DNA of 64,000 bases from an uncultured Syntrophaceae bacterium. GTDB lineage: Bacteria; Desulfobacterota; Syntrophia; Syntrophales; UBA8958. The notes beneath the pieces are model-generated. The model did no database searches. It saw only the letters and a program-made list of their open reading frames with translations, and was not told where the DNA came from. Positions within the stretch are counted from its first letter, which is position 1. Each line of letters opens with the position of its first letter. The stretch spans positions 9,063 to 73,062 of the forward strand of contig CAZYDG010000043.1 of NCBI GenBank assembly GCA_964645835.1. The letters run 5' to 3'. Shown piece by piece: positions 30,516 to 47,717 of the stretch. Both the position numbers and the translations under genes were made by a program.

Positions 30516-30595
30516 CAAGTTTTTCTTGACAATTCCCAGTGCCTATCTTAATAGTCGGTCTGTTCAACAAATGAACAGAAAGGAATGCCCGTATA

Positions 30596-31020: not shown

Positions 31021-31091
31021 TGTAATCCAAAGGGCGGAGCTGTATCTGGATGGGACGACAAATAATCGTGTAAGCCCTTTTTCAGGGCTCT
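31021..31091 (+). promoter_or_regulatory. Conserved leader motif (ops/JUMPstart-like), EPS sub-operon copy
   Basis: TGTAATCCAAAGGGCGGAGCTGTATCTGGA (31021-31050) plus TTTTTCAGGGCTCT (31078-31091). The 17-mer 31031-31047 is identical to 39453-39469. Lies 20-90 nt upstream of the ATG at 31111. Confidence 0.45.
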
Positions 31092-31110
31092 TAAAACGTA
31101 AAGGAGATAA

Positions 31111-32283
31111 ATGATGGACTTTATTGATCTGGCGGCGCAGCAAAAGCTGATCCTCGGGCAACTCGAAGGCAATATCAAAAATGTTTTAAATCACGGTCAG
31201 TATGTCATGGGACCGGAGATAAAGGTGCTTGAGAAAAAACTGGCCTCTTATGTGGGAGTCAAGCATGCTATTGGTTGCGCATCCGGGACAGATGCCCTGC
31301 TCATGGCCTTGATGGCCTATGGAATTGGCCCAGGCGATGCGGTCTTCACAACACCCTTTACATTTATCGCCACTGCAGAGGTTATCGCCCTCTTGGGCGC
31401 CACGCCTGTTTTTGTAGACATCGATCCGGATACATTCAATATATCGCCCGTGAAACTTGAGCAGGCTATTACGGCCCTGAAAACTCAAAACTCTTCCCTG
31501 TATCCATTACCCGTAGATCAAAAAGAAGCACTTGTTCCGAAGGGAATCATCCCTGTCGATCTTTTCGGCCTGCCTGCCGATTATGATCGGATCGGTGCGA
31601 TCGCGAAAGAGCATAATCTCTTCATCATTGAAGATGCGGCCCAGTCCTTCGGCGGAGATTATTACGGCAAAAAGGCCTGTGCATTAGGAAATATCGCCTG
31701 CACGTCATTTTTTCCCGCCAAACCACTGGGCTGCTACGGTGACGGCGGCATGTGTTTCACCGGCGATGACGGCCTGGCAAATGTCATGGAGTCCATTCGT
31801 ATCCACGGGAAAGGCGATGACAAATACGATAACATCCGCATCGGTATCAATGGTCGTCTCGATACCCTCCAGGCAGCCATTCTGCTGGCGAAATTCGATA
31901 TTTTCCCCGATGAAATCGAAAAACGGAGGGAAGCCGCCTGCCAGTATAACGATCTGATCGAGGCGGTAAACGGCTCTCTCGTCACGCCGAAAACCCCTGA
32001 AGGCTTCGGGAGCGCCTGGGCCCAGTATTCCCTCCTTGCCCAGGATGAAAAGACGAGGAACACCCTCATGAGTAACCTGAAGAAGCAAGGCATTCCCACG
32101 GCCATCTATTATCCGAAACCTCTGCACATGCAGACAGCCTTCGCCGGTTTCGGGTATTGCAAGGGGGCTTTTCCCGTATGTGAAGATTGTGCCGACCGCA
32201 TCTTCAGTTTGCCGATGCATCCCTACTTGAGCCTGGAGGTCCAGCAAACGATAGCACGGGGATTGGTAATGCCGGTAGAATGA
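31111..32283 (+). CDS. DegT/DnrJ/EryC1/StrS-family sugar aminotransferase
   Basis: 390 aa. Contains GPEI..LE..LA.Y.G.KHAIGCASGTDAL and FFPAKPLGCYGDGG. AAGGAG RBS. Confidence 0.88.
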   Translation: MMDFIDLAAQQKLILGQLEGNIKNVLNHGQYVMGPEIKVLEKKLASYVGVKHAIGCASGTDALLMALMAYGIGPGDAVFTTPFTFIATAEVIALLGATPVFVDIDPDTFNISPVKLEQAITALKTQNSSLYPLPVDQKEALVPKGIIPVDLFGLPADYDRIGAIAKEHNLFIIEDAAQSFGGDYYGKKACALGNIACTSFFPAKPLGCYGDGGMCFTGDDGLANVMESIRIHGKGDDKYDNIRIGINGRLDTLQAAILLAKFDIFPDEIEKRREAACQYNDLIEAVNGSLVTPKTPEGFGSAWAQYSLLAQDEKTRNTLMSNLKKQGIPTAIYYPKPLHMQTAFAGFGYCKGAFPVCEDCADRIFSLPMHPYLSLEVQQTIARGLVMPVE

Positions 32284-32326
32284 GCGATAATAGCGAGTTG
32301 AAAAAAGAATTCAAAAGGATCGGATT

Positions 32327-33556
32327 ATGAACTGTCGATTTTGCGGGCACCATCTCAAACACGAATTTATCGATTTAGTCAATTCTCCGCCTTCGAATGC
32401 CTTTTTGACAAAGGATCAACTCAATGAGCCGGAGATCTTCTACCCCCTTAAGCTTTACGTCTGCGACGCCTGCTTTCTCGTCCAGATCGATGAGTATAAG
32501 AAGTCCAGTGATATCTTTAATTCCGGGTATATCTATTTTTCCTCCTTTTCAACGACATGGCTGGCTCATGCCAGGAAATATGTTGAAATGATAATTGAGA
32601 GATTTGGATACAACCCAAAAAGCAGGGTCATCGAGATCGCTTCGAATGATGGCTATTTGCTGCAATATTTTAAAGAACGGGGGATTCCATGCCTCGGTAT
32701 CGAACCTGCGGAAGGTACTGCTTTTGAAGCCAGAAAGAAGGGCATTGAAACGGTTGTGAATTTTTTCGGCAAACGATTTGCGGAGGATCTGGCGGAGCAG
32801 GGGAAAAAGGCGGATTTGTTGATCGGCAACAATGTCCTTGCCCATGTCCCGGACCTGCATGATTTTGTGGCCGGTCTAAAGATTGCCCTAAAGTCCGATG
32901 GCGTAATTACCATGGAGTTTCCGCATTTGATGCAGCTTGTGGATGATTGCCTTTTCGATATTATCTATCATGAGCACTTTTCCTACCTGTCGCTCACAAC
33001 CGTCCAGTCCATCTTTAGACTGCATGGCCTCGACATCTTTGATGTCGATGAACTTCCTACCCAGGGAGGATCCCTCCGGATTTATGCGAAACATACAGAG
33101 GATCTTACTAAAGAAATCTCGAATCGTGTCGGCGCTTTTTTAGAAAATGAACGGGCAAAAGGTGTCAGCACGATGGACTATTATGAGGATTTTTCTCAGC
33201 GGGCGGACCGGATCAAATATGACCTGCTAAAATTCCTCATCGATCAGAAGCTAAAAGGGCGCAAGATTGCAGCCTATGGGGCAGCGGCCAAAGGCAACAC
33301 TCTTCTTAATTATTGCGGTATCCGAAAAGACCTCATTCCCTTCGTCGTCGATATATCGATACACAAGCAGGGGAAATATCTGCCCTGCAGCCATATTTTG
33401 GTGGTTGGCGAGGAGGAAATCAAGAAATACAAACCCGACTATGTCCTGATCCTGCCGTGGAATATCAAAGAAGAGATTATGGCGCAGCTTGATTACATCC
33501 ATGCCTGGGGCGGGCGATTTGTCGTGCCGATGCCGCGGGTCGAAGTTATTGATTAA
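32327..33556 (+). CDS. SAM-dependent sugar C-methyltransferase (TylCIII-like; N-terminal Zn-ribbon)
   Basis: 409 aa. Zn ribbon CRFCGH...CDAC, the class I MTase motif VIEIASNDGYLL, and a C-terminal C-methyltransferase-type domain. Confidence 0.7.
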   Translation: MNCRFCGHHLKHEFIDLVNSPPSNAFLTKDQLNEPEIFYPLKLYVCDACFLVQIDEYKKSSDIFNSGYIYFSSFSTTWLAHARKYVEMIIERFGYNPKSRVIEIASNDGYLLQYFKERGIPCLGIEPAEGTAFEARKKGIETVVNFFGKRFAEDLAEQGKKADLLIGNNVLAHVPDLHDFVAGLKIALKSDGVITMEFPHLMQLVDDCLFDIIYHEHFSYLSLTTVQSIFRLHGLDIFDVDELPTQGGSLRIYAKHTEDLTKEISNRVGAFLENERAKGVSTMDYYEDFSQRADRIKYDLLKFLIDQKLKGRKIAAYGAAAKGNTLLNYCGIRKDLIPFVVDISIHKQGKYLPCSHILVVGEEEIKKYKPDYVLILPWNIKEEIMAQLDYIHAWGGRFVVPMPRVEVID

Positions 33557-33562
33557 TAAGTA

Positions 33563-34513
33563 GTGGAGCTACTAACAGTTGCCATAACGGGAGCGGGCAG
33601 TTTTGTAGGGACGCATCTGTTGGAGCGCCTTATGCCCTGCAAGGATTTGTACTTCAGATTGCTTGTTCATAAAAATGTGAATGCATCTTTGCGGGGGGGG
33701 GGAAATGTCTCAATCATTGAGGGCAGTCTTCTTGACGGCAAGGCGTTGAACGATTTTGTCGTGCCGGGATGCATCGTGGTCAATCTGGCCTATCTTCACG
33801 ATGGCTCACTTGAGGACAATCTCGTTTCAATAGATAACCTCACAGAGACCTGTCGCCGGGCAAAGATAAAACGTCTTATCCATTGCAGCACGGCCGTCGT
33901 TTCCGGAAGAACTTCGAATAATATCGTTACAGAAAACACTTCCGGCAAGCTCTTGCATGAATACGAAATCATAAAAAATAATATTGAAAAAAATATACTG
34001 AAAAAATCGGATGGCTCTTTTGAAGTAGTTATTCTGCGACCGACAGCCATTTTTGGGAAAGATGGAAGAAATCTGCTTAAACTTGCCGATTCCCTTAGGT
34101 GTGGAAACAGGTTTCTGAATTACATAAAGTCATGCACTCACCAGTTCCGCCGGATGAACCTGGTCTATATCGAGAATGTAACGGCGGCCATTGAATATCT
34201 TATAAGGGCGGATCGTTTTATAAACAGTGAAATCTTCATTATTTCAGATGATGAGGATCCTGCCAATAATTATCGCGATATTGAAAAGTATTTAATGGCG
34301 CGAATGGGCTGCAAGCCCTATCGGGGCGCTCCGATTTCCCTGCCTTTTCCAATCTTAAAAACCATGCTTCGGCTTACGGGAAGAAGCAATGATAATCCAA
34401 ATCTTCTTTACGATTGCGGGAAGCTCAAATCCTATGGTTTCGAAAAGCCTGTTTCTTTTAAAGAGGGGTTATCGCGGTTTTCCGACTGGTATATAAAGAC
34501 GCATCTTTCTTGA
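33563..34513 (+). CDS. NAD-dependent epimerase/dehydratase family protein
   Basis: 316 aa, GTG start. Contains ITGAGSFVGTHL and YEIIK (YxxxK). The gene is visibly A/T-richer than its neighbours. Confidence 0.7.
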   Translation: MELLTVAITGAGSFVGTHLLERLMPCKDLYFRLLVHKNVNASLRGGGNVSIIEGSLLDGKALNDFVVPGCIVVNLAYLHDGSLEDNLVSIDNLTETCRRAKIKRLIHCSTAVVSGRTSNNIVTENTSGKLLHEYEIIKNNIEKNILKKSDGSFEVVILRPTAIFGKDGRNLLKLADSLRCGNRFLNYIKSCTHQFRRMNLVYIENVTAAIEYLIRADRFINSEIFIISDDEDPANNYRDIEKYLMARMGCKPYRGAPISLPFPILKTMLRLTGRSNDNPNLLYDCGKLKSYGFEKPVSFKEGLSRFSDWYIKTHLS

Positions 34514-34565
34514 ATAAAGGATTTTTCTGTGATCGTGCTGAGAAAACAATTTAAGGGCTTCCATA

Positions 34566-36044
34566 TTGTCCGTAAGAAATAATGTTATTGCAAATTTTTC
34601 GGGCAACGTATGGTCGGCCCTTATGGGGCTCATCTTTGTGCCGGTTTATATCCGATTGATGGGTGTTGAAGCTTACGGAATCGTTGGGATTTATATCTCC
34701 CTGCAGGCGGTCTTTGCGGTACTCGATCTTGGCTTGTCACAGACTTTGGCCAGAGAGATGGCGAGGCTCTCGGTGGATTCCAAGAATTTGAAGCTGATGG
34801 CGGATACGGCTCATACGCTGGAAATCATCTATTGGGTTGCCGCTGCAGGTGTCGCCCTTGTCATTGTCTTATCCTCTCATTTCATCGCCTATTATTGGTT
34901 AAACCCTCAGCAGCTGTCCAGAGAGTCCCTGCGGAATGCCTTATGGGTTATGGCTTTCGTGATTGGTATTCGCTGGCCCATGACCCTTTACATGGGGGGA
35001 TTGAACGGCTTGCAACGGCAAGTATTATGCAATACGCTGCTGGCATTTTTTGCCACCCTGCAGGGCATAGGCGCGATTGCTGTCCTTTGGTTTGTCGCAC
35101 CGACTATCGAAGTGTTTTTTTGCTGGCAAGCGTTGATCTCACTATTTCAGGTACTGGCTGTGCAAGTCGCTCTGTGGAGGAATCTTCCTTTCCGGGGATC
35201 GCGTTTTCGCTTGGATGTGCTGAAGGGGATATGGCGCTTTGCAGCGGGTATGACCGGTATTGCCCTGTTGGCAACGATATTGACGCAGTTGGATAAGCTT
35301 CTTCTCAGTAAGTTGCTCAGCTTGTCCGAATTTGGGTATTATGTGTTTGCTTCGACAGTTGCGGCGGCGCTTTTCAAATTGACGAGCCCGATCTTTACGG
35401 CCTATTTGCCACGATTTACCGAGTTGGCTTCAGTCGGCGATCAAGGATTGCTAATCCGAATTTACCATCAGGGCTGCCAGTTGATGGCTTTGGTCACCGT
35501 TCCCGCGGCAATGGTCTTGGCTTTTTTTTCGATGGATATTTTGATGTTATGGACTCGGGATGCAGGCTTGGCGATCCATTCCTTTTTATTAGTCAGCCTT
35601 TTAGTTGTCGGGAATGCTATCAATGGTTTCATGAATCTGCCCTATGCGCTGCAGCTCGCCCACGGATGGACCAAATTGGCTTTTTATCAGAATTTGATTG
35701 CTGTGATAATGGCCGTTCCCGGCTTCTTTGTTGCCACTTATTACTGGGGGGCAGTAGGCGCCGCAGCTGTCTGGATAGCAGTGAACAGCTCCTACGTTCT
35801 GATTGGCATCCAGGTGATGCACCGGCGTTTGCTGAAGACGGAAAAGGGGCGTTGGTATAAGGAATCAGTCATTTTCCCGTCTATTGCCGGAGGAGGAGTC
35901 GCCGCCTTTTTATCATATGTGGTCCCCATACCGGCCAATCCCTTCATGGTGGTCCTGTCTCTTACGGCGGTCAGTATTTTGATTTTTTTTAGCGTGGCAT
36001 TAGCTTTACCTGATATACGCCAAAGATTGGTTCAATACATCTAG
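34566..36044 (+). CDS. Wzx-type (MOP superfamily) polysaccharide flippase
   Basis: 492 aa with about 12-14 TM segments. The N-terminus NFSGNVWSALMGLIFVPVYIRLMG.EAYG is typical of Wzx. TTG start. Confidence 0.8.
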   Translation: MSVRNNVIANFSGNVWSALMGLIFVPVYIRLMGVEAYGIVGIYISLQAVFAVLDLGLSQTLAREMARLSVDSKNLKLMADTAHTLEIIYWVAAAGVALVIVLSSHFIAYYWLNPQQLSRESLRNALWVMAFVIGIRWPMTLYMGGLNGLQRQVLCNTLLAFFATLQGIGAIAVLWFVAPTIEVFFCWQALISLFQVLAVQVALWRNLPFRGSRFRLDVLKGIWRFAAGMTGIALLATILTQLDKLLLSKLLSLSEFGYYVFASTVAAALFKLTSPIFTAYLPRFTELASVGDQGLLIRIYHQGCQLMALVTVPAAMVLAFFSMDILMLWTRDAGLAIHSFLLVSLLVVGNAINGFMNLPYALQLAHGWTKLAFYQNLIAVIMAVPGFFVATYYWGAVGAAAVWIAVNSSYVLIGIQVMHRRLLKTEKGRWYKESVIFPSIAGGGVAAFLSYVVPIPANPFMVVLSLTAVSILIFFSVALALPDIRQRLVQYI

Positions 36045-36189
36045 CAGCTGTTGAAAAACGCCCATCTGCTGTGTTGCGCCGCAAGCTTCCCCGGCCTTCG
36101 CCGGGGCAGGCTACATCGACGTACTACTATGTATGCCTCATTCCTCAGCTTTTGCGTGCCTTGCATCTGGACATTTTTGAACAGCCTGC
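36044..36189 (+). repeat. MITE-like element, copy B (with nested hairpin insertion)
   Basis: 146 bp. Starts on the last base of the flippase stop codon. Aligns with copy D except for a replaced segment containing the hairpin CCCCGGCCTTCGCCGGGG. Confidence 0.8.
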
Positions 36190-36234
36190 ACAAAATCGAA
36201 TTTTTAACAACCTGCTAGACTTAGGGTTTATTTT

Positions 36235-37311
36235 ATGATCACCACTGTAATTCCAACTTTTCAGCGTCCTTTGTTGCTGAAACGGGCGATTGAGAGTGCC
36301 TTAGCCCAATCGTTCGGCGATATACAAATTTGTGTACATGATAATGCGTCCCAGGATGAAACGGAGTCGGTTGTTCGTGATTATGCACGTTTGGACAAGC
36401 GGGTTTTTTACTTCAGGAACCCCGTCAATATCGGACCGGTAAGGAACATGATCCAAGGCGTCAATGCTGTAGAGACGCCATACTACTCCCTCCTTAATGA
36501 TGACGATTTTTTGCTGCCCGGTTTTTACGAGCATGCCATTGGCGGTTTTAACCGCCATCCGGATGCCTGGATATCCTGTGCGAAGACCATGACGCTGAAC
36601 GTCATCGATGGGCAATTCGAACTTCGGAACCGGGACTGGGCGGCCGGTTTCTATCGACCAAGCATTGAAATACTTAATAAAATGTATAGTTCCCACTTTG
36701 TGCCGACCTCCGTTTTGTTCAGGCGGGATGTCAGGGACCACCTCGGGGCATTCGAGGCATCGGGAAGCGATTCTCTCTATTTAACGATAGCCTCCGCCAT
36801 ACTGCCTTTTGTTGTTGTCGATTACTATGGTGGTGCCGTCACCTTACACCGGCAGGCCTACTCCATGATCGGTGAGGGGATTAACAAAGAGGGCATCGGG
36901 GTGCTGAACGAGCATCTATTGGAGAGTCTGGGCGTCGTAATGAGAGCGGCTATCGATCCCGATCTGAAAGTCAATCTGCTCATGCTGGTCATTAATGCCT
37001 ATCATCAGATCTACGATTCGAAGCGCTTGGGGTATTTACTGGGCAACCACGATGAGGCGAATATCGGTAATCTGTTCATGCTTCCCTCGTTGATTACGAA
37101 TAGAGGGTTGGTGGCAAAATTTTATCGTGCCGTTCCTGACGGCTTCAAACCGATGGTCAAAATACTGTATGAAAAAACCTCTCTTGCAAGACAGAGGAGG
37201 CAAACGATATCAAATGCCAGTTGGATGCCCTTGCCTGACGATATTAAGGCCGGGTTGGAGCGATCTGATATCGATGTGTCCAAAATCGCGTCGCTAGCCG
37301 GTATCAAATAA
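36235..37311 (+). CDS. Glycosyltransferase family 2
   Basis: 358 aa. Contains ITTVIPTFQRP.LL.RAI.SAL.Q and LNDDD. Confidence 0.8.
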   Translation: MITTVIPTFQRPLLLKRAIESALAQSFGDIQICVHDNASQDETESVVRDYARLDKRVFYFRNPVNIGPVRNMIQGVNAVETPYYSLLNDDDFLLPGFYEHAIGGFNRHPDAWISCAKTMTLNVIDGQFELRNRDWAAGFYRPSIEILNKMYSSHFVPTSVLFRRDVRDHLGAFEASGSDSLYLTIASAILPFVVVDYYGGAVTLHRQAYSMIGEGINKEGIGVLNEHLLESLGVVMRAAIDPDLKVNLLMLVINAYHQIYDSKRLGYLLGNHDEANIGNLFMLPSLITNRGLVAKFYRAVPDGFKPMVKILYEKTSLARQRRQTISNASWMPLPDDIKAGLERSDIDVSKIASLAGIK

Positions 37312-37347
37312 AGTAAATCATTCAAAAGAAGATGAATTCGTAAAAAG

Positions 37348-37430
37348 TCGTCACACCGGTGAAAACCGGTGTCCAGTGTTTGTGTAACGCATTGAAATAT
37401 CTGGATTCCGGTCTTCACCGGAATGACGAT
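37348..37430. repeat. Double-hairpin palindromic element, copy 2
   Basis: GTCGTCACACCGGTGAAAACCGGTGTCCAG, a 25-nt spacer, then CTGGATTCCGGTCTTCACCGGAATGACGAT. The arms are mutual inverted repeats. Confidence 0.65.
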
Positions 37431-37452
37431 TCTTGAACATTTTTAGCTTTTT

Positions 37453-38148
37453 ATGAGAACATTAAAGAAAGTATCAAGAATAATGAGGCTTAGCAAAGAA
37501 ATCGAATTACGTATCGGTAGCTCGGAAGATTTAGCACGGTATGTTTTATATCAGTTACGTATTTTTATGCCAGCTGATCAAGATGAAGGTTTTGAAACAA
37601 TAAATCGCTATTTACCCGGAACCTTAAAACGAATGGCACCTATTTTGGCATGCGCCAAACATTTTCAGCCCGGAATTTTCGATCATCTTAATTCACAGCA
37701 GTATGCCATGTTTTTATATTTACTGGCCAATGAAATCTGGACAAATGATGAAAGCAGTTGGGTAGTATGTGAGAAACTCTTTTTTTTGAATAGAATATTT
37801 TCCGGAATGGATCTGTACTACAAAATAAATATGCCGGAGATTTTCCTGATCGAGCATGGTGGCGGATCTGTTCTTGTAAATACGCATTATGGAAATAAAT
37901 TTGTATTTTTTCAGTCCGTAACGGTTGGCCGGCTGGGGGATGCATGCCCTGTTATTGGAGAGGGTGTTATACTTTTTCCTAATACCGTCGTTACCGGAGA
38001 GTCCATCATTGGTGATTATTCCGTAATATCCGCCGGCACAATAGTTAATAATAAAATTATTCCGCCAGACTCAGTCGTGTTTTCCAATGGATCCGATATC
38101 GTTATCAAGGACAGGAAAAAAGATTATTTATCTTATTATTTTAGATAG
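37453..38148 (+). CDS. Hexapeptide-repeat (left-handed beta-helix) acyltransferase-like protein
   Basis: 231 aa. The C-terminal half has [LIV]-G-x4 hexapeptide periodicity (VIGEGVILFPNTVVTGESIIGDYSVISAGTIV). The N-terminal half resembles the serine-acetyltransferase-like helical domain. A/T-rich gene. Confidence 0.55.
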   Translation: MRTLKKVSRIMRLSKEIELRIGSSEDLARYVLYQLRIFMPADQDEGFETINRYLPGTLKRMAPILACAKHFQPGIFDHLNSQQYAMFLYLLANEIWTNDESSWVVCEKLFFLNRIFSGMDLYYKINMPEIFLIEHGGGSVLVNTHYGNKFVFFQSVTVGRLGDACPVIGEGVILFPNTVVTGESIIGDYSVISAGTIVNNKIIPPDSVVFSNGSDIVIKDRKKDYLSYYFR

Positions 38149-38202
38149 CATGATGTCGACGGGAACAATGACGCTATTGGACAGCTGATTGTGGGCGATT
38201 AC

Positions 38203-39123
38203 ATGGGATCGGAGCTTGTAAGCATCATCATTCCGGCCTTTAATCATGGACGATATCTCAGGCAGGCCATTGACAGTGTGCTGATGCAGGACTATCCGAA
38301 CATTGAATTGATCGTTCTGGATGACGGTTCAACTGATAATACCAGAGCGGTCCTTGAAAGTTACGGAGATGCCTTTTATTGGGAGACGCATCCGAACATG
38401 GGTCAGGCAAACACCCTTAACAAGGGGTGGCAACAGGCAAAGGGGTCGATTTTATCTTACCTCAGCGCCGATGACATTCTGATGCCCGATGCGGTCAGTT
38501 CATCTCTGGCGTATTTAAAGGGTGATATTGTCTTGACGTATGGCGATTTCAATCTTATCGATCCCTCATCGAAGATCATCCGGCAAGTAGCGGCGCCGGA
38601 GTTTAGCTATCTTGAAATGTTCTGCAAGTTCATTTGCCAGCCCGGCCCCGGGGTCTTTATGACCCGCCGGGCTTACGAAGCGGCGGGCGGCTGGGATAGC
38701 ACATTGAAGCAAATGCCCGACCATGAGTATTGGTTGCGGCTTGGGCTTGTCGGCCCATTTGTCAGGGTTCCGAAAGTACTTGCCGCATTTCGCGTGCACG
38801 ACGATTCGCTAACCTATTCGATTTCCGACACGCATAGAGCGGAAGAGCCGTTGCGGGTGATCCATAAGTTTATTGAAAGCCATGAACTACCACTGGAATT
38901 AATTGCCGTGAAACATGTTGCGATCAGCAGTGCCTGGCTTTTCACGGCGCAATTGCATATTCGCTCGGGTCGCTTTAAAGAGGGGTTTGCCGCATTGTGG
39001 CACTCATCCACGATATCACCTGGTAATTTCTTTTCTCTACGCACTTTTCGGATTCTTTTAAATAGTTTTTTAAATCGATGTTTTCACCGGATCATGCGAT
39101 TAAAAAACCGACTTGGAAATTGA
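38203..39123 (+). CDS. Glycosyltransferase family 2
   Basis: Contains VSIIIPAFNHGRYL.QAIDSVL.Q, LDDGSTD and SADD. The ATG 38203 start is preferred over GTG 38191. Confidence 0.85.
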   Translation: MGSELVSIIIPAFNHGRYLRQAIDSVLMQDYPNIELIVLDDGSTDNTRAVLESYGDAFYWETHPNMGQANTLNKGWQQAKGSILSYLSADDILMPDAVSSSLAYLKGDIVLTYGDFNLIDPSSKIIRQVAAPEFSYLEMFCKFICQPGPGVFMTRRAYEAAGGWDSTLKQMPDHEYWLRLGLVGPFVRVPKVLAAFRVHDDSLTYSISDTHRAEEPLRVIHKFIESHELPLELIAVKHVAISSAWLFTAQLHIRSGRFKEGFAALWHSSTISPGNFFSLRTFRILLNSFLNRCFHRIMRLKNRLGN

Positions 39124-39442
39124 TGATCTATACAATTTATGTAGAATTCCCCCATCCCCCTTTTGCTAAAAGGGGGCAATTTGATGTATTCCCTGCCTGG
39201 GGGGCAAGAGCATAACTGAGAGAGTTTATAAGGACGGTCTTTTAAACACGGAATGGGGATTAAATCAGCATAAGATTCCGAAACAATGGATTTATTAACG
39301 AATAGGCCGACGGTCCTTTCCTCCAGAATTGTCTTGACATTCCTTTGTCATTTAAGTAGGTTGCCGTCAGCGTTCAATTTGTGAACATATGGTTTTCCCC
39401 TCATTCTCGTTGTCTGAAGGGAAAAATCGGTCGCCCCTGGGT

Positions 39443-39498
39443 TGTAACTCAGAGGGCGGAGCTGTATCTTGAAAGGGATCATGATTTTTCAGTGCTCT
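39443..39498 (+). promoter_or_regulatory. Conserved leader motif (ops/JUMPstart-like), T2SS-like operon copy
   Basis: TGTAACTCAGAGGGCGGAGCTGTATCTTGA (39443-39472) plus TTTTTCAGTGCTCT (39485-39498). Lies 25-80 nt upstream of the gspG ATG. Confidence 0.45.
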
Positions 39499-39522: not shown

Positions 39523-39924
39523 ATGAAAGAGACAAAACAAAGACATAGGCAGGGGGGCTTCACACTTATTGAAATCCTGATCGTGGTCATTATCATCGGG
39601 CTCATTGCCTCTCTTGTGGCGCCGAACCTGATCGGCCGGTATGAACGGTCGAAGGAAGAAATTGCCAAGGCCCAGGTAGAAATGCTCTCGTCGGGCGTCA
39701 TGTCCTTTAAGCTGGATATGAACCGTTATCCGACCAGCTTTGATGAACTGGTTAAATCGACGGATGCGAAGTGGCGCGGCCCTTACCTTTCCAAGCAAAC
39801 CATCCCGCAAGACCCATGGGGGAGGGACTACGTATATAAAGTCCCCGGCGATCACGGGCCGTTTGATATCTATTCTCTGGGTGACAGCGGAAAACTGGAC
39901 GATAAATCGCCCAGGAACTGGTAA
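39523..39924 (+). CDS. gspG: Type II secretion major pseudopilin GspG
   Basis: 133 aa. Prepilin leader and cleavage site QGG/FTLIEILIVV. The C-terminus DPWGR.Y.Y..PG.HG.FD..SLG.DG is GspG-specific. Confidence 0.9.
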   Translation: MKETKQRHRQGGFTLIEILIVVIIIGLIASLVAPNLIGRYERSKEEIAKAQVEMLSSGVMSFKLDMNRYPTSFDELVKSTDAKWRGPYLSKQTIPQDPWGRDYVYKVPGDHGPFDIYSLGDSGKLDDKSPRNW

Positions 39925-39926
39925 GC

Positions 39927-41603
39927 ATGTCTTTCGAACAGATTTTAAAAGACAGCTACGGCGTCACGGAAGATGACTTCAACAAGGCGCTGAAGCTTCA
40001 AACCGAAATGGGCGGTCAGATTGGCCGCATCCTGGTCCAGGTCGGGTCTATTACGTATACCCAGTTGATGGAGGCGCTAGCTAAGAGCATGAATGTGCCA
40101 CTCTTTAGCGGCGACTGGGAACAGAACGGTGACTTGATCACCTTCCTCGATGGTCATCTAAACTATGGATATCTCCTGCGCAACAACGTTTTGCCTATCG
40201 GTATAGACCATGAACACAAGGTGTTATCTGTTGTAACCGACGATCCCTTCAATACATCCATTTCAGATTATATAGTAAACAATCTCGGCTACCGCGTGGC
40301 CATATCACTGGCGACGGAAGATACGATCAAGGACCTGTCCAAAGACTATACGGATGGACAAACGGGGGAATTCGTATCCCTCGAGTTTGAGGAAGATGCC
40401 GCGAAGCTCAAGGAGATGGCCTTTGAAGCCCCGGTGATCAAATTTCTCAATAATCTGATCAGTAAGGCAGTTGAAATCAGGGCTTCCGATATCCATCTGG
40501 AATCGTCGGAACGCAGATACCGTGTTCGCTTCAGGATCGACGGTATTCTCCAGGATATCGAATTTCTTGATGAGCAATTTTTCCTGGCAACCGTTTCGCG
40601 TATCAAACTCCTTGCCAGTCTCGATATCGCGGAAAAAAGATTGCCCCAGGATGGCAAATTTACGACCAAGATCGCTTCCCTGCTGTTGGATATCCGTGTT
40701 TCCACCATGCCCACCATCAGTGGCGGCGGCGTCGTGATGAGACTCCTGTATCGGGAGAAGATTTCTTTCGATCTTGAATACCTGGGGCTTGATGTGGATC
40801 ACAAGGAGTTGGTGGTCAACCTCATTTCACGTTCGTATGGCATGCTTCTCGTCACGGGTCCGACCGGTTCGGGCAAGACGACCACCCTCTATTCGATGCT
40901 TACGCGTTTGAACGATCCGGAACGAAAGATCATTACCATCGAGGACCCCGTCGAATATCAATTGGAAGGGATCAATCAGATCCAGACAAAAAGCGAGATC
41001 GGGCTCACATTTGCCAGCGCTCTGCGTTCCATCCTGAGACACGATCCCGATATTATCATGGTCGGCGAGATCCGGGACAGGGAAACGGCAGAAATATCCA
41101 TTCAGTCTGCTTTGACGGGACATTTCGTTTTTTCCACACTCCATACGAACGATGCACCGAGTAGTCTGTTTCGGCTCGTAGAAATGGGTGTGGCTGATTA
41201 TCTCCTCAATGCGGCGGTAGTCGGCGTGATGGCCCAACGAATCGTAAGAAAAAATTGCCCCTTTTGCCTGGAGCCGGAAGCCTTGCCCGACATCCTCTTG
41301 GAAGAATACGCCTTTAATGAGATTGTCGCTAAATATTCGAACCTTGCGCCGGAAGGATTGAAGGCAATGAAGGGAAAAGGGTGCTCAAAATGTGCGGGTA
41401 CGGGTTATAAAGGCCGAATCGCTATCTTTGAAATATTTGAATATAAGGAAGAACTCAAGCAGGTCTTTCTGAAGAGATTGTCCCTTGAGGATATGAGGGT
41501 CGCGTTGCATGCAGACGGTAATTATCGAACCCTCCGGGAAGACGGAATCCTTAAAGTGGCAAAGGGTCTGACGACACTGGAAGAGGTATTGCGCGTATGC
41601 TGA
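39927..41603 (+). CDS. gspE: GspE/PilB-family secretion ATPase
   Basis: 558 aa. Walker A VTGPTGSGKTTT, Asp/His boxes, and a tetracysteine CPFC...CSKCAGTG. Confidence 0.92.
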   Translation: MSFEQILKDSYGVTEDDFNKALKLQTEMGGQIGRILVQVGSITYTQLMEALAKSMNVPLFSGDWEQNGDLITFLDGHLNYGYLLRNNVLPIGIDHEHKVLSVVTDDPFNTSISDYIVNNLGYRVAISLATEDTIKDLSKDYTDGQTGEFVSLEFEEDAAKLKEMAFEAPVIKFLNNLISKAVEIRASDIHLESSERRYRVRFRIDGILQDIEFLDEQFFLATVSRIKLLASLDIAEKRLPQDGKFTTKIASLLLDIRVSTMPTISGGGVVMRLLYREKISFDLEYLGLDVDHKELVVNLISRSYGMLLVTGPTGSGKTTTLYSMLTRLNDPERKIITIEDPVEYQLEGINQIQTKSEIGLTFASALRSILRHDPDIIMVGEIRDRETAEISIQSALTGHFVFSTLHTNDAPSSLFRLVEMGVADYLLNAAVVGVMAQRIVRKNCPFCLEPEALPDILLEEYAFNEIVAKYSNLAPEGLKAMKGKGCSKCAGTGYKGRIAIFEIFEYKEELKQVFLKRLSLEDMRVALHADGNYRTLREDGILKVAKGLTTLEEVLRVC

Positions 41604-42802
41604 GCCTCTTTGCCTATAAGGCCCTGGATGCTTCCGGCCAGGAAAATAAAGGGACGATCAGTGCGGCAAATTCGTCCGAAGCGGTGCTGGCACTCAGGTC
41701 ACGGGGACTTGTTGTCATTGATCTCAACGAACGAAGAGAGATGACCAAGAAAGGGATTCGTTTTGCCAGGCGCTTCGGCCAACAGGACCTTTACAGTGTC
41801 GCCAGGGAATTGAGCACCCTGCTTCGATCCGGCATGCGGATCGACAAATCTCTTGAAATCTTGATCTCAGCAACATCGAAACAAGACCTGAAACAGGTTC
41901 TTGAAGGGATTTTGACGGATATAAAGGCCGGCCGGGATGTGGCTGAAGCCTTCGGACGAACGGGACGGTTCAGTTCTTTCCTGGTCAGCATGATCCACGT
42001 CGGCGAGGCCGTTGGGGCGCTTCAGCCCGCATTTGAAAATATCGCCCAATATCTTCGTTTCCAGATTCAGTTCAAATCGGAGATTCGGGGGGCGCTGACC
42101 TATCCAGTTTTTCTGATCTTTGCCAGTATCCTGACATTTGTAGTCATCTTCAATTTTATCGTTCCAAGATTTTTCAGCATCTTCGGTACGAACCTGACCA
42201 GCCTGCCCCTGCCGGCCAAAATTCTCTATACCTTAAGCGGGTGGTTGAGTTTCAGAAATATCGCCATTTGCCTGGCCGTGGCGGCACTCGTCGTATTTGC
42301 CAATAAAATGAATCCGACAAAATTCAAATTGCCCAACTGGTCCTCTTATCTGATCCGTATTCCCATGATGGGGAATCTCATTTTAAACCTGGAACTGTCG
42401 CGATTTTCCTATTCCATGTATTCTATCCTCTCGAGCGGTGTGACCTTTATTCAGGCACTAAGCTTGTCCGCTTCCCTGATACAGAATGAACATCTTCGGC
42501 ATCCGATAACATCCCTTGTCGGCCAGATCAAGGAAGGCAAGAAGATTTCCGATGTTTTCATGCAGGTCAATATACTTCCGGATATATACCCCAATATGAT
42601 AATGGTCGGCGAAGAGAGCGGCAACCTCAAAGATATCTTCTTTGAACTTTATCAGATTTTCGATGAGCGCTTCAAGAACAGCATCAAGATGGTTTTGACG
42701 CTTGTAGAGCCTATAATTATTCTGTTGATGGGACTACTCGTCGGCTTTATCGTCATTACGCTGATTCTGACCGTTATGAGCGTCAGCAGCATTAAATTGT
42801 AA
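41597..42802 (+). CDS. gspF: GspF/PilC-family inner-membrane platform protein
   Basis: 401 aa. Two repeated T2SSF-type domains and 3 TM segments. Overlaps the gspE stop. Confidence 0.9.
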   Translation: MLSLFAYKALDASGQENKGTISAANSSEAVLALRSRGLVVIDLNERREMTKKGIRFARRFGQQDLYSVARELSTLLRSGMRIDKSLEILISATSKQDLKQVLEGILTDIKAGRDVAEAFGRTGRFSSFLVSMIHVGEAVGALQPAFENIAQYLRFQIQFKSEIRGALTYPVFLIFASILTFVVIFNFIVPRFFSIFGTNLTSLPLPAKILYTLSGWLSFRNIAICLAVAALVVFANKMNPTKFKLPNWSSYLIRIPMMGNLILNLELSRFSYSMYSILSSGVTFIQALSLSASLIQNEHLRHPITSLVGQIKEGKKISDVFMQVNILPDIYPNMIMVGEESGNLKDIFFELYQIFDERFKNSIKMVLTLVEPIIILLMGLLVGFIVITLILTVMSVSSIKL

Positions 42803-42827
42803 AATAATCCCTATGATCGGGAGCAAG

Positions 42828-43229
42828 ATGACAGAGAAAGGGTTCAGTCTGATCGAACTGCTTTTGGTTGTCTCTATCATCGGGTTGATGTTTTCGGTTG
42901 CCCTTCCTGTTTCGTTCAATATGTACAGCAACTATAAGGCCTCAATTAAGGCCCAGGAAATAATGGTTTATACATCCGGTATACGGCGGGAAGCCTTTCT
43001 TTACAGCGAAAGAAAAGTGTTGTCTTCAAAAGACAATGTCATGACCGTGAACAGCGAGAAAAAGAATTTTGATAATGTAAAGGTGCAGATCAGCTCTCCC
43101 ATAGAATTCTTCCGAAATGGGACGACCAATGGGGGGATGATTAAGATCGTGGTCGATGACCAGATTTATCAATTGAATGTCCTACCTCCAGTGGGAGATC
43201 TTGCCCTTTCGAGAGGCGATGGCTCTTAA
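42828..43229 (+). CDS. Minor pseudopilin (GspH-like)
   Basis: Prepilin N-terminus MTEKG/FSLIELLLVVSIIGL. The ATG 42828 start follows GGGAG. The track start at 42813 lacks an RBS. Confidence 0.7.
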   Translation: MTEKGFSLIELLLVVSIIGLMFSVALPVSFNMYSNYKASIKAQEIMVYTSGIRREAFLYSERKVLSSKDNVMTVNSEKKNFDNVKVQISSPIEFFRNGTTNGGMIKIVVDDQIYQLNVLPPVGDLALSRGDGS

Positions 43230-43647
43230 CTCAAACGGCAGGAAGGGTTTTCTCGTCCTGGAGATTCTGATTGCCGGTCTTATCCTTACCTCGAGTATCG
43301 CGGCGACCATGTACATGTTTCATATGGGGAGCCTGTATCTTGATAAGGTGAATCAATCGAATATGCTGTCGTCAAAGCTTATTCAGGTAAGCAACATTTT
43401 CAAGGTTGTGCCCCTCGAAAACAGTTCGGGTACGGAAGACATGGGTGATGGGGTCCTCATGACATGGAAGTCGCAACTGATCTCATCGGCCAAACCACAG
43501 ATTGGCGAGGGTGAAGATGCCTTGCCTTCCCTGCATGAACTCATGCTGTACCTGGTGAGTTTTGATCTTGCCTATCAAGGCAATACAAGAAGCTATCAGA
43601 TCAATGTCTTTCGCTATAAACCATTGTCATCGGGGGAAACCGACTAG
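43219..43647 (+). CDS. Minor pseudopilin-like protein (GspI position)
   Basis: Start reset to ATG 43219, giving MALNSNGRKG/FLVLEILIAGLIL, with Glu at +5 after Gly-Phe. Confidence 0.55.
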   Translation: MALNSNGRKGFLVLEILIAGLILTSSIAATMYMFHMGSLYLDKVNQSNMLSSKLIQVSNIFKVVPLENSSGTEDMGDGVLMTWKSQLISSAKPQIGEGEDALPSLHELMLYLVSFDLAYQGNTRSYQINVFRYKPLSSGETD

Positions 43648-44299
43648 GGGCTATACCCTGGTTGAGGTCATGGTGGCTATGGTCATTCTGACGTCCATGC
43701 TGTTCCTGGGCGGCATGGCCATTAATCAAGGGCTCCGTCAGTACCATGGCCTCGTGGAGCAAGGCCTCAATTTCTGGGAATATGCAAAAACGCTATGGAT
43801 CGACAAGAGTTGCAACTCGGCAACGGACTATTACGTGTATACGAGAAGCGATGGATGGTTCCCCTACTTCAAAGGCGATCAGGAAGGGCTTTCGTTTGTC
43901 TCCTTGGCGCCTTTTGCAAACGATACGCCAGTTGCTATTTGGATAAGAAACGTTTCTGAAAAAGATGGATCTCGTTCGCTTGTATATTACGAATTGCCCG
44001 TTTATACGAAAACTTATGAAGATTTAGACCGGGACTATGTCTTCGGCGATTATAAAAAAGGAAGATCTTACAAGATTCTGGAAAATTTCAGCGCCATCGA
44101 ATTCAGCTTCTATGGTTATGATGTGCAGACAGGAAAAACCGTCTGGTCCAATCAATATGAGGGCAAGGCTATGAAACGGCTGCCTTCTTTAGTCAAAATT
44201 TCCTATCGGCATCACAAAACCGGCAAGGGGGTCTTGCTGTTAAGCATGAATGTTAATGCGCTCTTGAAAGCCGGTTATAATGAAGCCTATGTCAGATAG
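43604..44299 (+). CDS. Minor pseudopilin-like protein (GspJ position)
   Basis: Start reset to ATG 43604, giving ...KPTRG/YTLVEVMVAMVIL. About 230 aa, as for GspJ. Confidence 0.55.
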   Translation: MSFAINHCHRGKPTRGYTLVEVMVAMVILTSMLFLGGMAINQGLRQYHGLVEQGLNFWEYAKTLWIDKSCNSATDYYVYTRSDGWFPYFKGDQEGLSFVSLAPFANDTPVAIWIRNVSEKDGSRSLVYYELPVYTKTYEDLDRDYVFGDYKKGRSYKILENFSAIEFSFYGYDVQTGKTVWSNQYEGKAMKRLPSLVKISYRHHKTGKGVLLLSMNVNALLKAGYNEAYVR

Positions 44300-45218
44300 G
44301 CAAGGCTCCGTTACGATTTTGATTATGCTGATCGCCGCTGTTCTGATCACGGTGGGATTGGGATTCAACTGGTTGGTAAAAGAGCACGTCAGTTCTTCCG
44401 AGGGGTTAAAGAGCAAGGCTGAGGCAATTATCAAGGCCCGGTCGACTTTTGATACTGTTATCTTTTTGATCCTAACAGGCCGGGTACTGGCGAAAGAAGT
44501 GGCTACACCGGGGGGTGAATCTATCGCAGGGATAGTCACTCTGCCCCTTAACGGACAATTGGTAAAACTGGGGGAAGGAGTCAGTGTTCGAATTCAGGAG
44601 AGTAATGGTGCTATCTCCCTGTGGCATACAACCAGCCTAGAGAATAAAGCTGCTTTAGAGCGGTTGATTCAGCTATATGCCAAAGATCGCGACCATGATC
44701 AAAATCCTGCAGACAATTTATGGGACTGGATCGATGAGGATGATCTAGCCCGGACCAACGGTGCAGAAGCGGCTTATTATAAAGGAAAGGGATTGCATTA
44801 CGTGCCCAGGAATTATGCCCTCCAATCATTGGACGAACTTAAATTAATAAAAGGCTTTGACGAAAGCTTGCTTGACAAACTGGATAAAAGTTTGACTCTT
44901 CTACCCAAGACGGGTTTCAATCCGAATACGGCTTCGGACGATGTATTAATGGCCTATCTGAAATTTGACGAGCAAGCGATGAAGACTATGAAAGAGTATT
45001 TGGCCGATAAGCCAGTTTCATCGGATCGTGAGATGCTCTCTTTGACGGGGCAGAGCATTACAAAGGATGTGGATGCGATCTACTTTAGGCCATCACCCTA
45101 TATGGATGTGACAATTGATGTGGGAACACCTCGAAAAGTTTACAGTATCAAGGCCGGCTTGTTTATCGCCCAGAAAAAATACGCACCCTACAGTGTGTTA
45201 TCGTGGAAAGAGGAATAG
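44280..45218 (+). CDS. gspK: GspK-like pseudopilus tip protein
   Basis: 312 aa. N-terminal hydrophobic segment GSVTILIMLIAAVLI without Glu5. Contains DWIDEDD...NGAE..YY and L.S..EL.LIKG, hallmarks of T2SSK. Confidence 0.75.
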   Translation: MKPMSDRQGSVTILIMLIAAVLITVGLGFNWLVKEHVSSSEGLKSKAEAIIKARSTFDTVIFLILTGRVLAKEVATPGGESIAGIVTLPLNGQLVKLGEGVSVRIQESNGAISLWHTTSLENKAALERLIQLYAKDRDHDQNPADNLWDWIDEDDLARTNGAEAAYYKGKGLHYVPRNYALQSLDELKLIKGFDESLLDKLDKSLTLLPKTGFNPNTASDDVLMAYLKFDEQAMKTMKEYLADKPVSSDREMLSLTGQSITKDVDAIYFRPSPYMDVTIDVGTPRKVYSIKAGLFIAQKKYAPYSVLSWKEE

Positions 45219-45225
45219 GCGGGAT

Positions 45226-46428
45226 ATGGGGATGATGATTGCATACTGGGATAGGGAAAGACTTGATATTTACCGTATCGTCAACAAACGGCCGGTCAGA
45301 TTTGCAGCTGGAAGTCTCGACAAGCTAACTCCCGTTAGGAAGGTTGCCGATAAAAAGATCTTGATTATCGGCAGGGATCGTCTTGTTCACCTGAAAAAAA
45401 GATACCCCCCGGCGCCTGAAGAGACTTTGCGAAAGGCAGTCGATCTGGAAATCGGGGAACTGGTCCCGCTGACCCATCCGGCCTGTCATTGCCGAATCTT
45501 TGAATCATACGGCACCCATATCATGCTGGATATATGGGCATGGGAAACTGATCAATATGCCCGCCTGAATGAGGTTTTCCCTTTCAACGCTGTCGTTCCG
45601 GAGGATATTCTCTTTTCGTCTGCCAATCCTGAGATGTCGATTTATCATCATCAGGGTGCCGTTAATATGCTTGTTCACGGTCAAGGGAAATTCTTTGCCG
45701 GCGCTACGTTCCCCACGGAAACGTTCAGTCAGGGCGACATGGACCGGTTTATCGAAGGGCTCGCCCAGTACCGGGTCGATATAACAAAAATCAAGATATA
45801 TGGAACATTGCCTTTTTCGCTGGCTGGTCGACAACTTCCGGAAATCGCCAATGTTTCTGCTCCTGCGTATCCTCCATGTCTGGACTATTTTGATTTATTG
45901 GACCTGAAAAAGTTCCGCGTAAGGCGTGATTACCATTTTTTAGAGAAAAAAGATTTCATATTAAGACTCTTCATATATCTGATTCTAGGTTATGTCCTCA
46001 TGCTCTACCTTACCATGAGAAACTATGATGAAGTCTCCTCCGCCATCAAGTTGAAACTCAATCTTCTGGATCGGCAGGTATCGGCCTTGACGATAGACCG
46101 CGGTGAGACGGCAGACAGTCAAGATACCCTCGTCAAGGAACTCAATGAGAAGATATCCTCAAGGCAATCCGCCCTCTCCGCCATGACGGTATTGGCCCGG
46201 AGGCTTCCCAAGGGCAGTTTCGTTACACGAATGGTTTTCAATGGGAACAATACGGATATTTCTTTGTCTTCAAAAGAGCCCTTGGCTGTTCTTCGATTAT
46301 TGGGGAATGCACCGGAGATTAAAAAGGTCAGCATGAAGGGGCCGCCGGTTAAAGATCGAAGCACGGCTTCATACAATTTCAACATGACCATCGAGTTTAT
46401 CCGGTTGCCTGGTAGCGAGTCGATATGA
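45226..46428 (+). CDS. GspL-like assembly protein (PilM-like cytoplasmic domain + TM + PilN-like periplasmic domain)
   Basis: Start reset to ATG 45226, after the gspK stop. A single TM segment ILRLFIYLILGYVLMLYL lies at about residue 245. The call rests on architecture and position, not on recognised motifs. Confidence 0.45.
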   Translation: MGMMIAYWDRERLDIYRIVNKRPVRFAAGSLDKLTPVRKVADKKILIIGRDRLVHLKKRYPPAPEETLRKAVDLEIGELVPLTHPACHCRIFESYGTHIMLDIWAWETDQYARLNEVFPFNAVVPEDILFSSANPEMSIYHHQGAVNMLVHGQGKFFAGATFPTETFSQGDMDRFIEGLAQYRVDITKIKIYGTLPFSLAGRQLPEIANVSAPAYPPCLDYFDLLDLKKFRVRRDYHFLEKKDFILRLFIYLILGYVLMLYLTMRNYDEVSSAIKLKLNLLDRQVSALTIDRGETADSQDTLVKELNEKISSRQSALSAMTVLARRLPKGSFVTRMVFNGNNTDISLSSKEPLAVLRLLGNAPEIKKVSMKGPPVKDRSTASYNFNMTIEFIRLPGSESI

Positions 46429-46979
46429 TCAATATTATTCCCCAGAAAGATTTGAAGACCATCGGTATCTATCTTATCGTTGCTTTGGCGCTGATCCGAT
46501 TCCTGGTCTATCCCCTTTATGCATCCGTCGACGGGCGGAAGAAGAGCCTTGCCGAGCAATATGAAAACTATCAAGTTAAGGTTGCGCTACTCGAGAGGCA
46601 AATTGCGGAAAGGCAAAAAAATGAACATAATGCCAAGTCACCGGTCTCTGATCCCAAGGTGATCTTATCAAAATACTATGATAAGAATATCAAATTCCCT
46701 AATATCCAAGCGGATCTGATCGAATCGCTCATCAAAATATCCGAAAAGAAAGGTATGACCGTCATTGATTTCGAATTGTTGGAGCCGGTTGCAGGTCCAA
46801 ATATCAGCGAGATACCTGTGTTGATCAGGATCAGCGGTCAGTCGGGTGCTTTTGTGGACGTTCTCAGGGAGATAGAACGAAGTGACAAGGTCTTGGTGGT
46901 AAAATCGATGGAGATTAATAAAATTGGAGCGGAATTCCGCTTTTTCTTGACCTTGTCGTCTTTCCGGATAGAGAAATGA
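46425..46979 (+). CDS. GspM/PilO-like bitopic protein
   Basis: 184 aa with an N-terminal TM (IGIYLIVALALIRFLVY) followed by a coiled segment. ATGA start/stop overlaps on both sides. Confidence 0.45.
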   Translation: MINIIPQKDLKTIGIYLIVALALIRFLVYPLYASVDGRKKSLAEQYENYQVKVALLERQIAERQKNEHNAKSPVSDPKVILSKYYDKNIKFPNIQADLIESLIKISEKKGMTVIDFELLEPVAGPNISEIPVLIRISGQSGAFVDVLREIERSDKVLVVKSMEINKIGAEFRFFLTLSSFRIEK

Positions 46980-47713: not shown

Positions 47714-47717
47714 AAGT

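Follow-up and report, generated by a model that had tools for sequence, protein, structure and literature searches.

A 64-kb stretch of contig CAZYDG010000043.1 from an uncultured Syntrophaceae bacterium (hereafter the window) carries two copies of a 23-nucleotide (nt) box, one upstream of a row of polysaccharide genes and one upstream of a row of genes for a pseudopilus resembling that of type II secretion systems (T2SS). Both copies are probably extended ops-type loading and pause sites for NusG paralogues of the UpxY family, most like the opsX sites of Bacteroides, and the box is apparently an undescribed variant of the ops-type element, remarkably invariant and widely distributed. Its sequence, its position and its strand are conserved, box and UpxY-family genes are associated whichever of the two is used as the query, the core falls into the register of ops and opsX, and copy 2 comes with a predicted RNA hairpin. 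At such sites RNA polymerase would be expected to pause, take up the factor and become resistant to termination; in this genome, the factor would presumably be supplied in trans by a gene lying elsewhere.

Detailed knowledge of where specialised NusG paralogues load is limited to RfaH (ops) and, from 2024, Bacteroides UpxY (opsX). UpxY-family proteins of other phyla have no loading site reported in the searchable literature, from which the box strings are also absent. The box would offer one almost invariant 23-nt candidate site across Nitrospirota, Acidobacteriota, Desulfobacterota, environmental Bacteroidota and others. In-vitro assays of pausing and loading could draw on its consensus, and it would serve as a genomic marker for the regulon of such factors. 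It would also provide a natural contrast to Bacteroides, whose sites have diversified for locus specificity. Judging from sequence, syntrophic bacteria appear to control their exopolysaccharide (EPS) operons jointly with those for T2SS-like pseudopili, at the level of elongation.

Two copies of the box in the window

The 17-mer AGGGCGGAGCTGTATCT is found exactly at 31031-31047 and 39453-39469, both on the + strand, as the initial annotation of this DNA had noted. These are the sole matches in the 64 kb even when 3 mismatches are allowed; 0.12 would be expected, and two were reached in 1 of 100 shuffles. Pairwise alignment of both leaders yields three common blocks, i.e., a box of about 30 nt (TGTAAyyCArAGGGCGGAGCTGTATCTkGA), ATCrTG and TTTTTCAGkGCTCT, in agreement with the extended similarity of about 30 nt first described. 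The core of the box, TGTAA-N5-AGGGCGGAGCTGT, comprises 23 bases of which 18 are specified, and both window copies match it exactly (Table 1). They are intergenic and have the same orientation as the long gene row downstream. The distance from the start of the 17-mer to the first ATG is 80 nt for copy 1 (a DegT gene at 31111) and 70 nt for copy 2 (gspG at 39523), which confirms the 70-80 nt originally given. A regular expression for the wider box family detected nothing beyond the two copies in the window or at 64-74 kb.

A second block, TTTTTCAGTGCTCT, had been thought to belong to the same signal. It is indeed present after both copies, 30 and 15 nt past the 17-mer, respectively. It is not part of the conserved element: of 121 box copies, the two of this window alone have it, and it is missing from the copies of the relative L010. 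In total, about 90 nt are common to both window leaders, which suggests a local duplication of a leader segment. In copy 1 (31064-31095) a small hairpin, AGCCC-uuuuuca-GGGCU, takes its loop and 3' arm from block 2; it is not followed by a U-tract.

The weaker look-alike GGCAGCTGATCTT pointed out at 22.5 kb does exist on the minus strand (22534-22522). It has none of the invariant features of the box and goes undetected at up to 5 mismatches in the 18 core positions. Another string, GGCGGAGCTGA, occurs twice, 20 nt apart, at 21052-21082 on the minus strand within a GT4 glycosyltransferase gene; this is coding sequence and contains no box.

Distribution of the box in relatives and across phyla

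Orthologous pseudopilus operons of relatives were fetched via GspG homologues (fetched loci are labelled from L002 onwards). In L010/L011 (83% GspG identity) two boxes with the same core are located 27 nt before the first gene of the EPS cluster and 34 nt before gspG. A weaker variant is found in L002/L003 about 220 nt before the transcription unit holding gspG, and there is no box upstream of gspG in L004-L009, which include a relative with a 90%-identical GspG, or in Syntrophus gentianae-like loci. Because the box is absent from L004-L009, present in L010 and represented by a distant variant in L002, it is tied to some transcription-unit starts and not to gspG as such. The idea of a box conserved upstream of gspG in every relative was rejected given its absence from L004-L009.

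One genome per species (596 Gb, both strands) was then scanned with the pattern TGTAANNNNNAGGGCGGAGCTGT, which has 18 specified bases. The exact core is present in at least 119 genome stretches from about 10 phyla, compared with about 17 expected by chance according to our own arithmetic. The carriers among the matches listed include Smithella, Syntrophaceae, Desulfobacteraceae, Desulfatiglandales, Terriglobia and other Acidobacteriota, Nitrospira and other Nitrospirota, Omnitrophota, Dadabacteria, environmental Bacteroidota, Verrucomicrobiota, Scalindua and a few others; a metagenome-assembled genome labelled Desulfosudis oleivorans (L113) has the box as well. In the same set the five N positions are biased, giving the consensus a/c-TGTAA-b-Y-S-A-r-AGGGCGGAGCTGT-r-t, with A at position 8 in 118 of 120 copies. 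Near-variants of the box are rare within the megabase of sequence fetched.

Among the matches listed, 109 of 124 copies are outside any open reading frame (ORF) of at least 100 amino acids (aa), the next gene is on the strand of the box in 100 of 111 cases, and the median distance to the gene start is 78 nt. The gene families that follow are Polysacc_synt_2 dehydratases, Poly_export, Wzz, DegT, Wzt ABC transporters, UDP-glucose dehydrogenase, DUF218 and GT9. A 5'-leader position, co-oriented with a polysaccharide operon, is that of a UpxY/opsX-type site. The repeat exceeds chance in that the core is kept at the equivalent place in L010 and in at least 119 other genome stretches.

In about 20 copies (e.g., L018, L026, L097 and L130) a block (T/A)AGG(T/C)TT ends 15-16 nt upstream of TGTAA; the window entry is at 39357-39362. 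From its sequence this block could be a -10-like hexamer, the 5' arm of a hairpin (GGTTAC pairing with GTAAC) or an additional upstream contact.

NusG paralogues encoded next to the box

Clustering the neighbouring ORFs of all box loci brought out two families of regulators, a winged-helix protein (see below) and a NusG paralogue. The latter, about 170 aa long, contains the Pfam NusG NGN domain and passes the UpxY-family model NF033644 with 120.9 and 111.9 bits (cut-off 100). The same proteins fail the RfaH model TIGR01955 (81.5 and 92.1 bits, cut-off 144.5), the LoaP model NF033641 (57.4 and 81.4 bits, cut-off 125) and the NusG model. Among the matches listed, such a paralogue adjoins the box, before or after it, in 27 motif-selected loci; as for opsX, a UpxY-family partner is encoded at or near the site, here at the level of the family. 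Gene order varies with the lineage: winged-helix gene, box, four-helix-bundle gene and paralogue in Nitrospira; box and paralogue in Acidobacteriota; winged-helix gene, paralogue, box and EPS genes in Desulfobacteraceae and Omnitrophota. The four-helix-bundle gene of the Nitrospira tiles (L015, L061, L074, L078, L081 and others), between box and paralogue gene, matches TIGR02436, which we take to be the family of 23S rRNA intervening-sequence proteins.

The association also holds in the opposite direction. In 80 metagenome loci fetched by the paralogue protein alone (the query being an alignment of 4 sequences), a box with at most 3 mismatches in 18 is present in 33, with 0.3 expected by chance. 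All 33 are on the strand of the gene, from 547 nt upstream to 366 nt downstream of it, and looser variants in about 16 further loci extend the range to 33-49 of 80. When motif- and protein-selected loci are pooled, a box variant lies near 76 of 107 paralogue ORFs, and all variants retain the GCG-N-AGC core, three of them as GCG-N-AAGC. The initial annotation had proposed a leader element for a specialised, RfaH-like NusG paralogue shared by glycan and pseudopilus operons outside the enterobacteria. Both sets of loci and the ops/opsX register support this proposal at the family level, with a partner that is UpxY-like and not RfaH.

Across phyla the paralogues are 35-46% identical, with an invariant D-R inside a basic hairpin R-W-K-D-R-K-K. 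Boxes of the type G[G/T]GGCGAAGC (e.g., L197, L203, L205 and L209-L211) go with paralogues that have Cys in the context WYAAYT-C-SRHEK, and the partners of canonical boxes have Arg or Lys, as in WYALRT-R-SRHEK; this correlation is suggestive and confounded by shared ancestry. By hand alignment, and not as a tool result, the position corresponds to the DNA-contact residue Lys10 of RfaH. In L161 (4926-6489), a NusG paralogue gene is immediately preceded by one for an ATPase with a Pfam AAA_22 match, presumably of a kind known from PEP-CTERM loci, and is followed by a variant box (…GGGCGGAGCATT). The searchable literature contains no paper linking PEP-CTERM or exosortase loci with NusG antitermination.

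Register of the box and possible mechanism

In Bacteroides, UpxY loads at opsX sites of about 40 bp in the leaders of capsule operons (Saba et al. 2024, PMC11685472). These sites combine an elemental pause, a non-template-strand mini-hairpin (5'-YGCGNAGCR), sequence-specific contacts with the upstream duplex (footprints at -21/-24 and beyond) and a NusA-stimulated nascent RNA hairpin that ends at -12 to -9 and is at times extended as an “escape duplex” (PMC11685472). With the last base at -1, opsE ends in CTGCGAAGCATA and opsA in CCGCGTAGCGCA, and E. coli ops has GCGGTAGC (PMC11685472). The opsX sites differ between loci and each UpxY recognises its own only (PMC11685472).

If the last T of the box GGGCGGAGCTGT is taken as -1, GCG comes to lie at -10 to -8, as in ops, opsA and opsE, AGC at -6 to -4 and TGTAA at -23 to -19. 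The box thus has G at -10, T at -1 and three bases between AGC and the pause. The GCG-G-AGC core of the non-template-strand hairpin is present in both window copies and in all canonical copies.

On this register, RNA polymerase moving through the box would pause at the last T (31043 and 39465). The non-template strand would then expose the mini-hairpin GCG-G-AGC at -10 to -4, TGTAA would be placed in the just-rewound upstream duplex, and at copy 2 the nascent RNA hairpin would end at about -10. Such a composite signal might be read by a UpxY-family paralogue that displaces the housekeeping NusG from the polymerase. Having loaded at copy 1, the paralogue would escort the polymerase along the polysaccharide row (31.1-39.1 kb), and reloading at copy 2 would allow it to do the same along the T2SS-like pseudopilus row (39.5-47.7 kb).

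Predicted nascent RNA hairpin and probable transcription of the box

The predicted fold at copy 2 (-19.9 kcal/mol, z -3.3) is equalled in stability by 0 of 200 shuffles. Relative to the predicted pause, the 3' arm comes to an end at about -10 to -8; with weaker pairs the fold can reach 39428-39464. Across 120 copies, an exact Watson-Crick complement of the copy's own N5 occurs within 35 nt upstream in 11.7%, against 2.5% +/- 1.4% in a permutation control in which flanks were swapped among copies with different N5. At least one fully complementary upstream 5-mer (Watson-Crick or G-U) exists for fourteen different N5 sequences, and the duplex energy of the upstream flank has a z of about -4.6 against permuted pairs. 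The sense strand pairs better than the antisense strand, which G-U pairing would lead one to expect. The hairpin appears real but optional, and its G-U pairs suggest that transcription runs through the box in the sense direction. Pairing of N5 with the 3' flank was rejected (-4.75 kcal/mol for the downstream flank vs -4.98 kcal/mol permuted); the partner is upstream.

The position of the box in L013 also bears on its transcription. There, 46 nt separate the end of the paralogue gene from the box, and 6 nt after the box a Shine-Dalgarno sequence, AGGAGG, begins, a spacing that leaves no room for a start site and a leader after the box. From these sequences, the box probably lies in the transcribed leader and is unlikely to be a promoter.

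Evidence against and alternative explanations

Several observations weigh against the box as a loading site for a UpxY-family factor. As regards the signal, copy 1 has no significant upstream RNA hairpin (z -0.5) and a hairpin is found in a minority of copies, about 12-25% across the family. The mini-hairpin is flanked by G and T and not by Y and R, so that the extra closing pair of opsX is lacking, and the +1 base is A in both window copies instead of the consensus G; the 120 copies among the matches listed have A in 77, G in 29, C in 12 and T in 2. As regards the factor, a six-frame hidden Markov model search and the called genes revealed no NusG paralogue at record positions 660-81,599 of a 914-kb contig, i.e., the window with 10-kb extensions at both ends. 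Nor is there one in about 35 box-carrying 8-kb tiles labelled Syntrophales-type (Syntrophus, Smithella, Syntrophaceae). Protein-database searches with the paralogue as query returned no Syntrophus entry among the best 120 matches, which is uninformative rather than negative, and the search for Syntrophus-like neighbours in the paralogue loci was likewise negative or uninformative. This leaves three options for the organism, a factor acting in trans, no factor at all or a substitute for it; because no paralogue is found within 81 kb of contig or in the Syntrophales-type tiles, we infer action in trans for this genome. Finally, the sole regulator that reliably adjoins the box in Syntrophales is another protein, MarR_EPS.

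The gene for this protein, directly upstream of copy 1, is not mentioned in the initial annotation. It encodes a full MarR_EPS of 129 aa (TIGR04176, 136.7 bits vs a cut-off of 88; Pfam HTH_24). The window protein also has sub-threshold matches to models of archaeal transcription factor E/TFIIE-alpha (PF02002, E 1.8e-7; NF004910, E 2.3e-8). A homologous winged helix-turn-helix (wHTH) gene of a short or a long type exists in 34 other box loci, and in the 32 where it clusters with the window gene it is directly upstream of the box and co-oriented. The short type (about 126-130 aa, true MarR_EPS) is that of the window and of loci whose labels are mostly Syntrophales-type or unclassified “delta proteobacterium”, and a paralogue is never beside it. 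The long type (about 195 aa) has an extra C-terminal domain and scores under the model cut-off; a paralogue adjoins it in 15 of 17 loci. MarR_EPS is a conserved companion of the box.

These loci make it conceivable, though unlikely, that the box is the operator of MarR_EPS, bound as duplex DNA or as RNA, and that its link with NusG paralogues is an indirect one through shared polysaccharide loci. In favour of an operator are the 32-34 co-oriented loci, copy 1 included, the single adjoining regulator in Syntrophales-type loci and the 81 kb devoid of a paralogue. The box is asymmetric, however, without the inverted or tandem half-sites used by MarR dimers, it comes after the MarR_EPS gene and away from that gene's promoter, where palindromic or repeated half-sites would be expected, and it is strictly co-oriented with transcription. 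Moreover, 18 box positions are identical across phyla although the wHTH proteins drop to about 30% identity and alter their architecture, and the tiles of the five Acidobacteriota loci with a paralogue next to the box yielded no MarR_EPS homologue. An operator would also leave the GCG-N-AGC match to the register of ops and opsX unexplained. A more speculative and distinctly unlikely scheme makes the box a universal “elongation code” with two readers, in which MarR_EPS would act on the paused polymerase and not as a classical repressor, partnering the NusG paralogue or replacing it in Syntrophales. If true, MarR_EPS would represent a new class of wHTH factor targeted to the elongation complex.

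It is very unlikely that the box is a cis-acting RNA element, i.e., a hairpin with a UGUAA loop and a single-stranded GGA tail, bound by another RNA-binding protein (e.g., a CsrA-like one) or acting as an attenuator, independently of NusG paralogues. In favour are the complementarity of the upstream flank with its G-U pairs, the strong hairpin of copy 2 and the GGA, a motif preferred by CsrA, that, as read from the sequence, could be part of a GC-GGA-GC mini-stem. However, no Rfam family matches, the linear sequence is invariant where the hairpin is confined to a minority of copies, and the two-way association with paralogue genes would be unexplained. A box that is itself a promoter for an alternative sigma factor is highly improbable, even though TGTAAC resembles the -35 of some promoters of the extracytoplasmic function (ECF) type and the box is near start codons in several loci. 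The best-conserved part would then be the “spacer” AGGGCGGAGC, which promoters do not conserve, and the 14 nt from TGTAAC to TGTA would not accommodate a -35/-10 pair. Inspection by eye showed no match to the sigma-54 pattern, copy 2 has a separate TTGACA-17-TAGGTT 80 nt upstream, and the Shine-Dalgarno sequence of L013 is as close as described above; sigma-54, ECF and sigma-70 readings were all discarded for these reasons of spacing and “spacer” conservation. That the box is a true member of the enterobacterial RfaH/ops/JUMPstart system can hardly be credited. GGCGG, the G-T ending and the leader location are common to box and ops, but the box (GGCGGAGCTGTA) matches ops at 6 of 10 specified positions without gaps, the JUMPstart model is silent at E up to 10, block 2 is confined to this genome, and the associated proteins remain at 81-92 bits on the RfaH model and yet pass the UpxY model.

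Genes and sites in the window

Copy 2 is situated between the last gene of the polysaccharide row and the gspG-like gene, and the T2SS-like row is followed by an acyltransferase gene (47688-48944) and then RmlA (Table 1). In the relatives fetched (L002-L006, L010) the T2SS-like operon always ends with SLT transglycosylase and secretin genes. Neither a secretin nor an SLT gene was found up to 74 kb in the window and its extension. If the promoter-like site upstream of the MarR_EPS gene is used, copy 1 would fall within the transcript. The sigma-70-like candidate upstream of copy 2 matches 3 of 6 bases at -10, which is under the threshold of the scanner, and its transcription start would be about 75 nt before copy 2.

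Table 1. Features of the window connected with the two box copies; parts of the boxes are predictions from the opsX register (PMC11685472)
Feature	Position	Strand	Remarks
Promoter-like site	30526..30555	+	TTGACA-18-AATAGT; consensus scan only; upstream of MarR_EPS gene
MarR_EPS winged-helix regulator gene	30596..30985	+	129 aa; stops 35 nt before box copy 1
Box copy 1	31021..31043	+	TGTAATCCAAAGGGCGGAGCTGT; exact core match
Copy 1, TGTAA	31021-25	+	Predicted upstream duplex, -23..-19
Copy 1, GCGGAGC	31034-40	+	Predicted non-template-strand mini-hairpin, -10..-4
Copy 1, pause T	31043	+	Predicted, -1
Twin of block 2	31078-31091	+	
Polysaccharide gene row	31111..39123	+	DegT aminotransferase, C-methyltransferase, epimerase, Wzx-type flippase, GT2, hexapeptide transferase, GT2; Pfam, called genes
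Sigma-70-like promoter candidate	39334..39362	+	TTGACA-17 nt-TAGGTT; read from sequence
Predicted nascent-RNA hairpin, copy 2	39432..39458	+	CCCCUGGGU pairs with ACUCAG(a)GGG, loop UGUA
Box copy 2	39443..39465	+	TGTAACTCAGAGGGCGGAGCTGT; exact core match
Copy 2, TGTAA	39443-47	+	Predicted upstream duplex
Copy 2, GCGGAGC	39456-62	+	Predicted non-template-strand mini-hairpin
Copy 2, pause T	39465	+	Predicted
Block 2	39485..39498	+	
T2SS-like pseudopilus gene row	39523..47713	+	gspG-like pseudopilin, GspE ATPase, GspF, minor pseudopilins, GspK-like, L/M-like genes; Pfam, orthologous operons in relatives

Comparison with known systems

According to reviews, recruitment signals are known for RfaH only and have been proposed for LoaP. 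LoaP of Bacillus velezensis resembles the partners of the box in being a NusG paralogue encoded next to its target operon, and a leader hairpin has been implicated in its action. It differs in its proposed RNA binding via the KOW domain, whereas the invariant part of the box is a linear sequence in an ops-like register, and the box partners remain under the LoaP cut-off.

JUMPstart (Rfam RF01707) is likewise a leader element of polysaccharide clusters with an ops-like core, and the initial annotation had recognised both of its halves here in swapped order. This comparison fails. At the gathering score there is no Rfam match in the window or in 18 other loci, and at E up to 10 neither leader gives one, JUMPstart included, save for two unrelated weak matches. 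The swapped-halves idea finds no support either, as the proposed second half (CAGTGCTCT) is not conserved outside this genome.

The likeness to RfaH and the 12-nt ops of E. coli (GGCGGTAGnnTG) is closer. Both systems would have one invariant signal for scattered operons and a factor encoded elsewhere, GCG at -10 to -8 and T at -1, and targets among envelope polysaccharide, secretion or pilus operons. However, the box departs from the ops consensus, its loop is one base shorter with the T at -6 missing, and it is 23-25 nt long as against 12. In addition, some box copies have an RNA pause hairpin, which ops does not, and the partner proteins fail the RfaH model.

Compared with the opsX sites of class 1 (B. 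fragilis), the box does not change from genome to genome, from phylum to phylum or among several operons of one genome, whereas opsX is locus-specific. No UpxZ partner was seen, the genes after the paralogue being those of polysaccharide enzymes (no model search for UpxZ was made), and the usual companion of the box is a MarR_EPS-type wHTH gene. In Syntrophales the operon does not include the factor gene, and the factor would act in trans; the optional RNA hairpin, the G and T that flank the mini-hairpin and an upstream sequence unrelated to opsA and opsE are further differences. Nevertheless, box and opsX have the same partner family (NF033644), the same location in polysaccharide-operon leaders and GCG-N-AGC at the same register. 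The box extends some 20 bp or more upstream, with TGTAA where UpxY footprints the upstream DNA, and the 3' arm of an RNA hairpin can lie near -10, which in copy 2 may be extended in the manner of the “escape duplex”.

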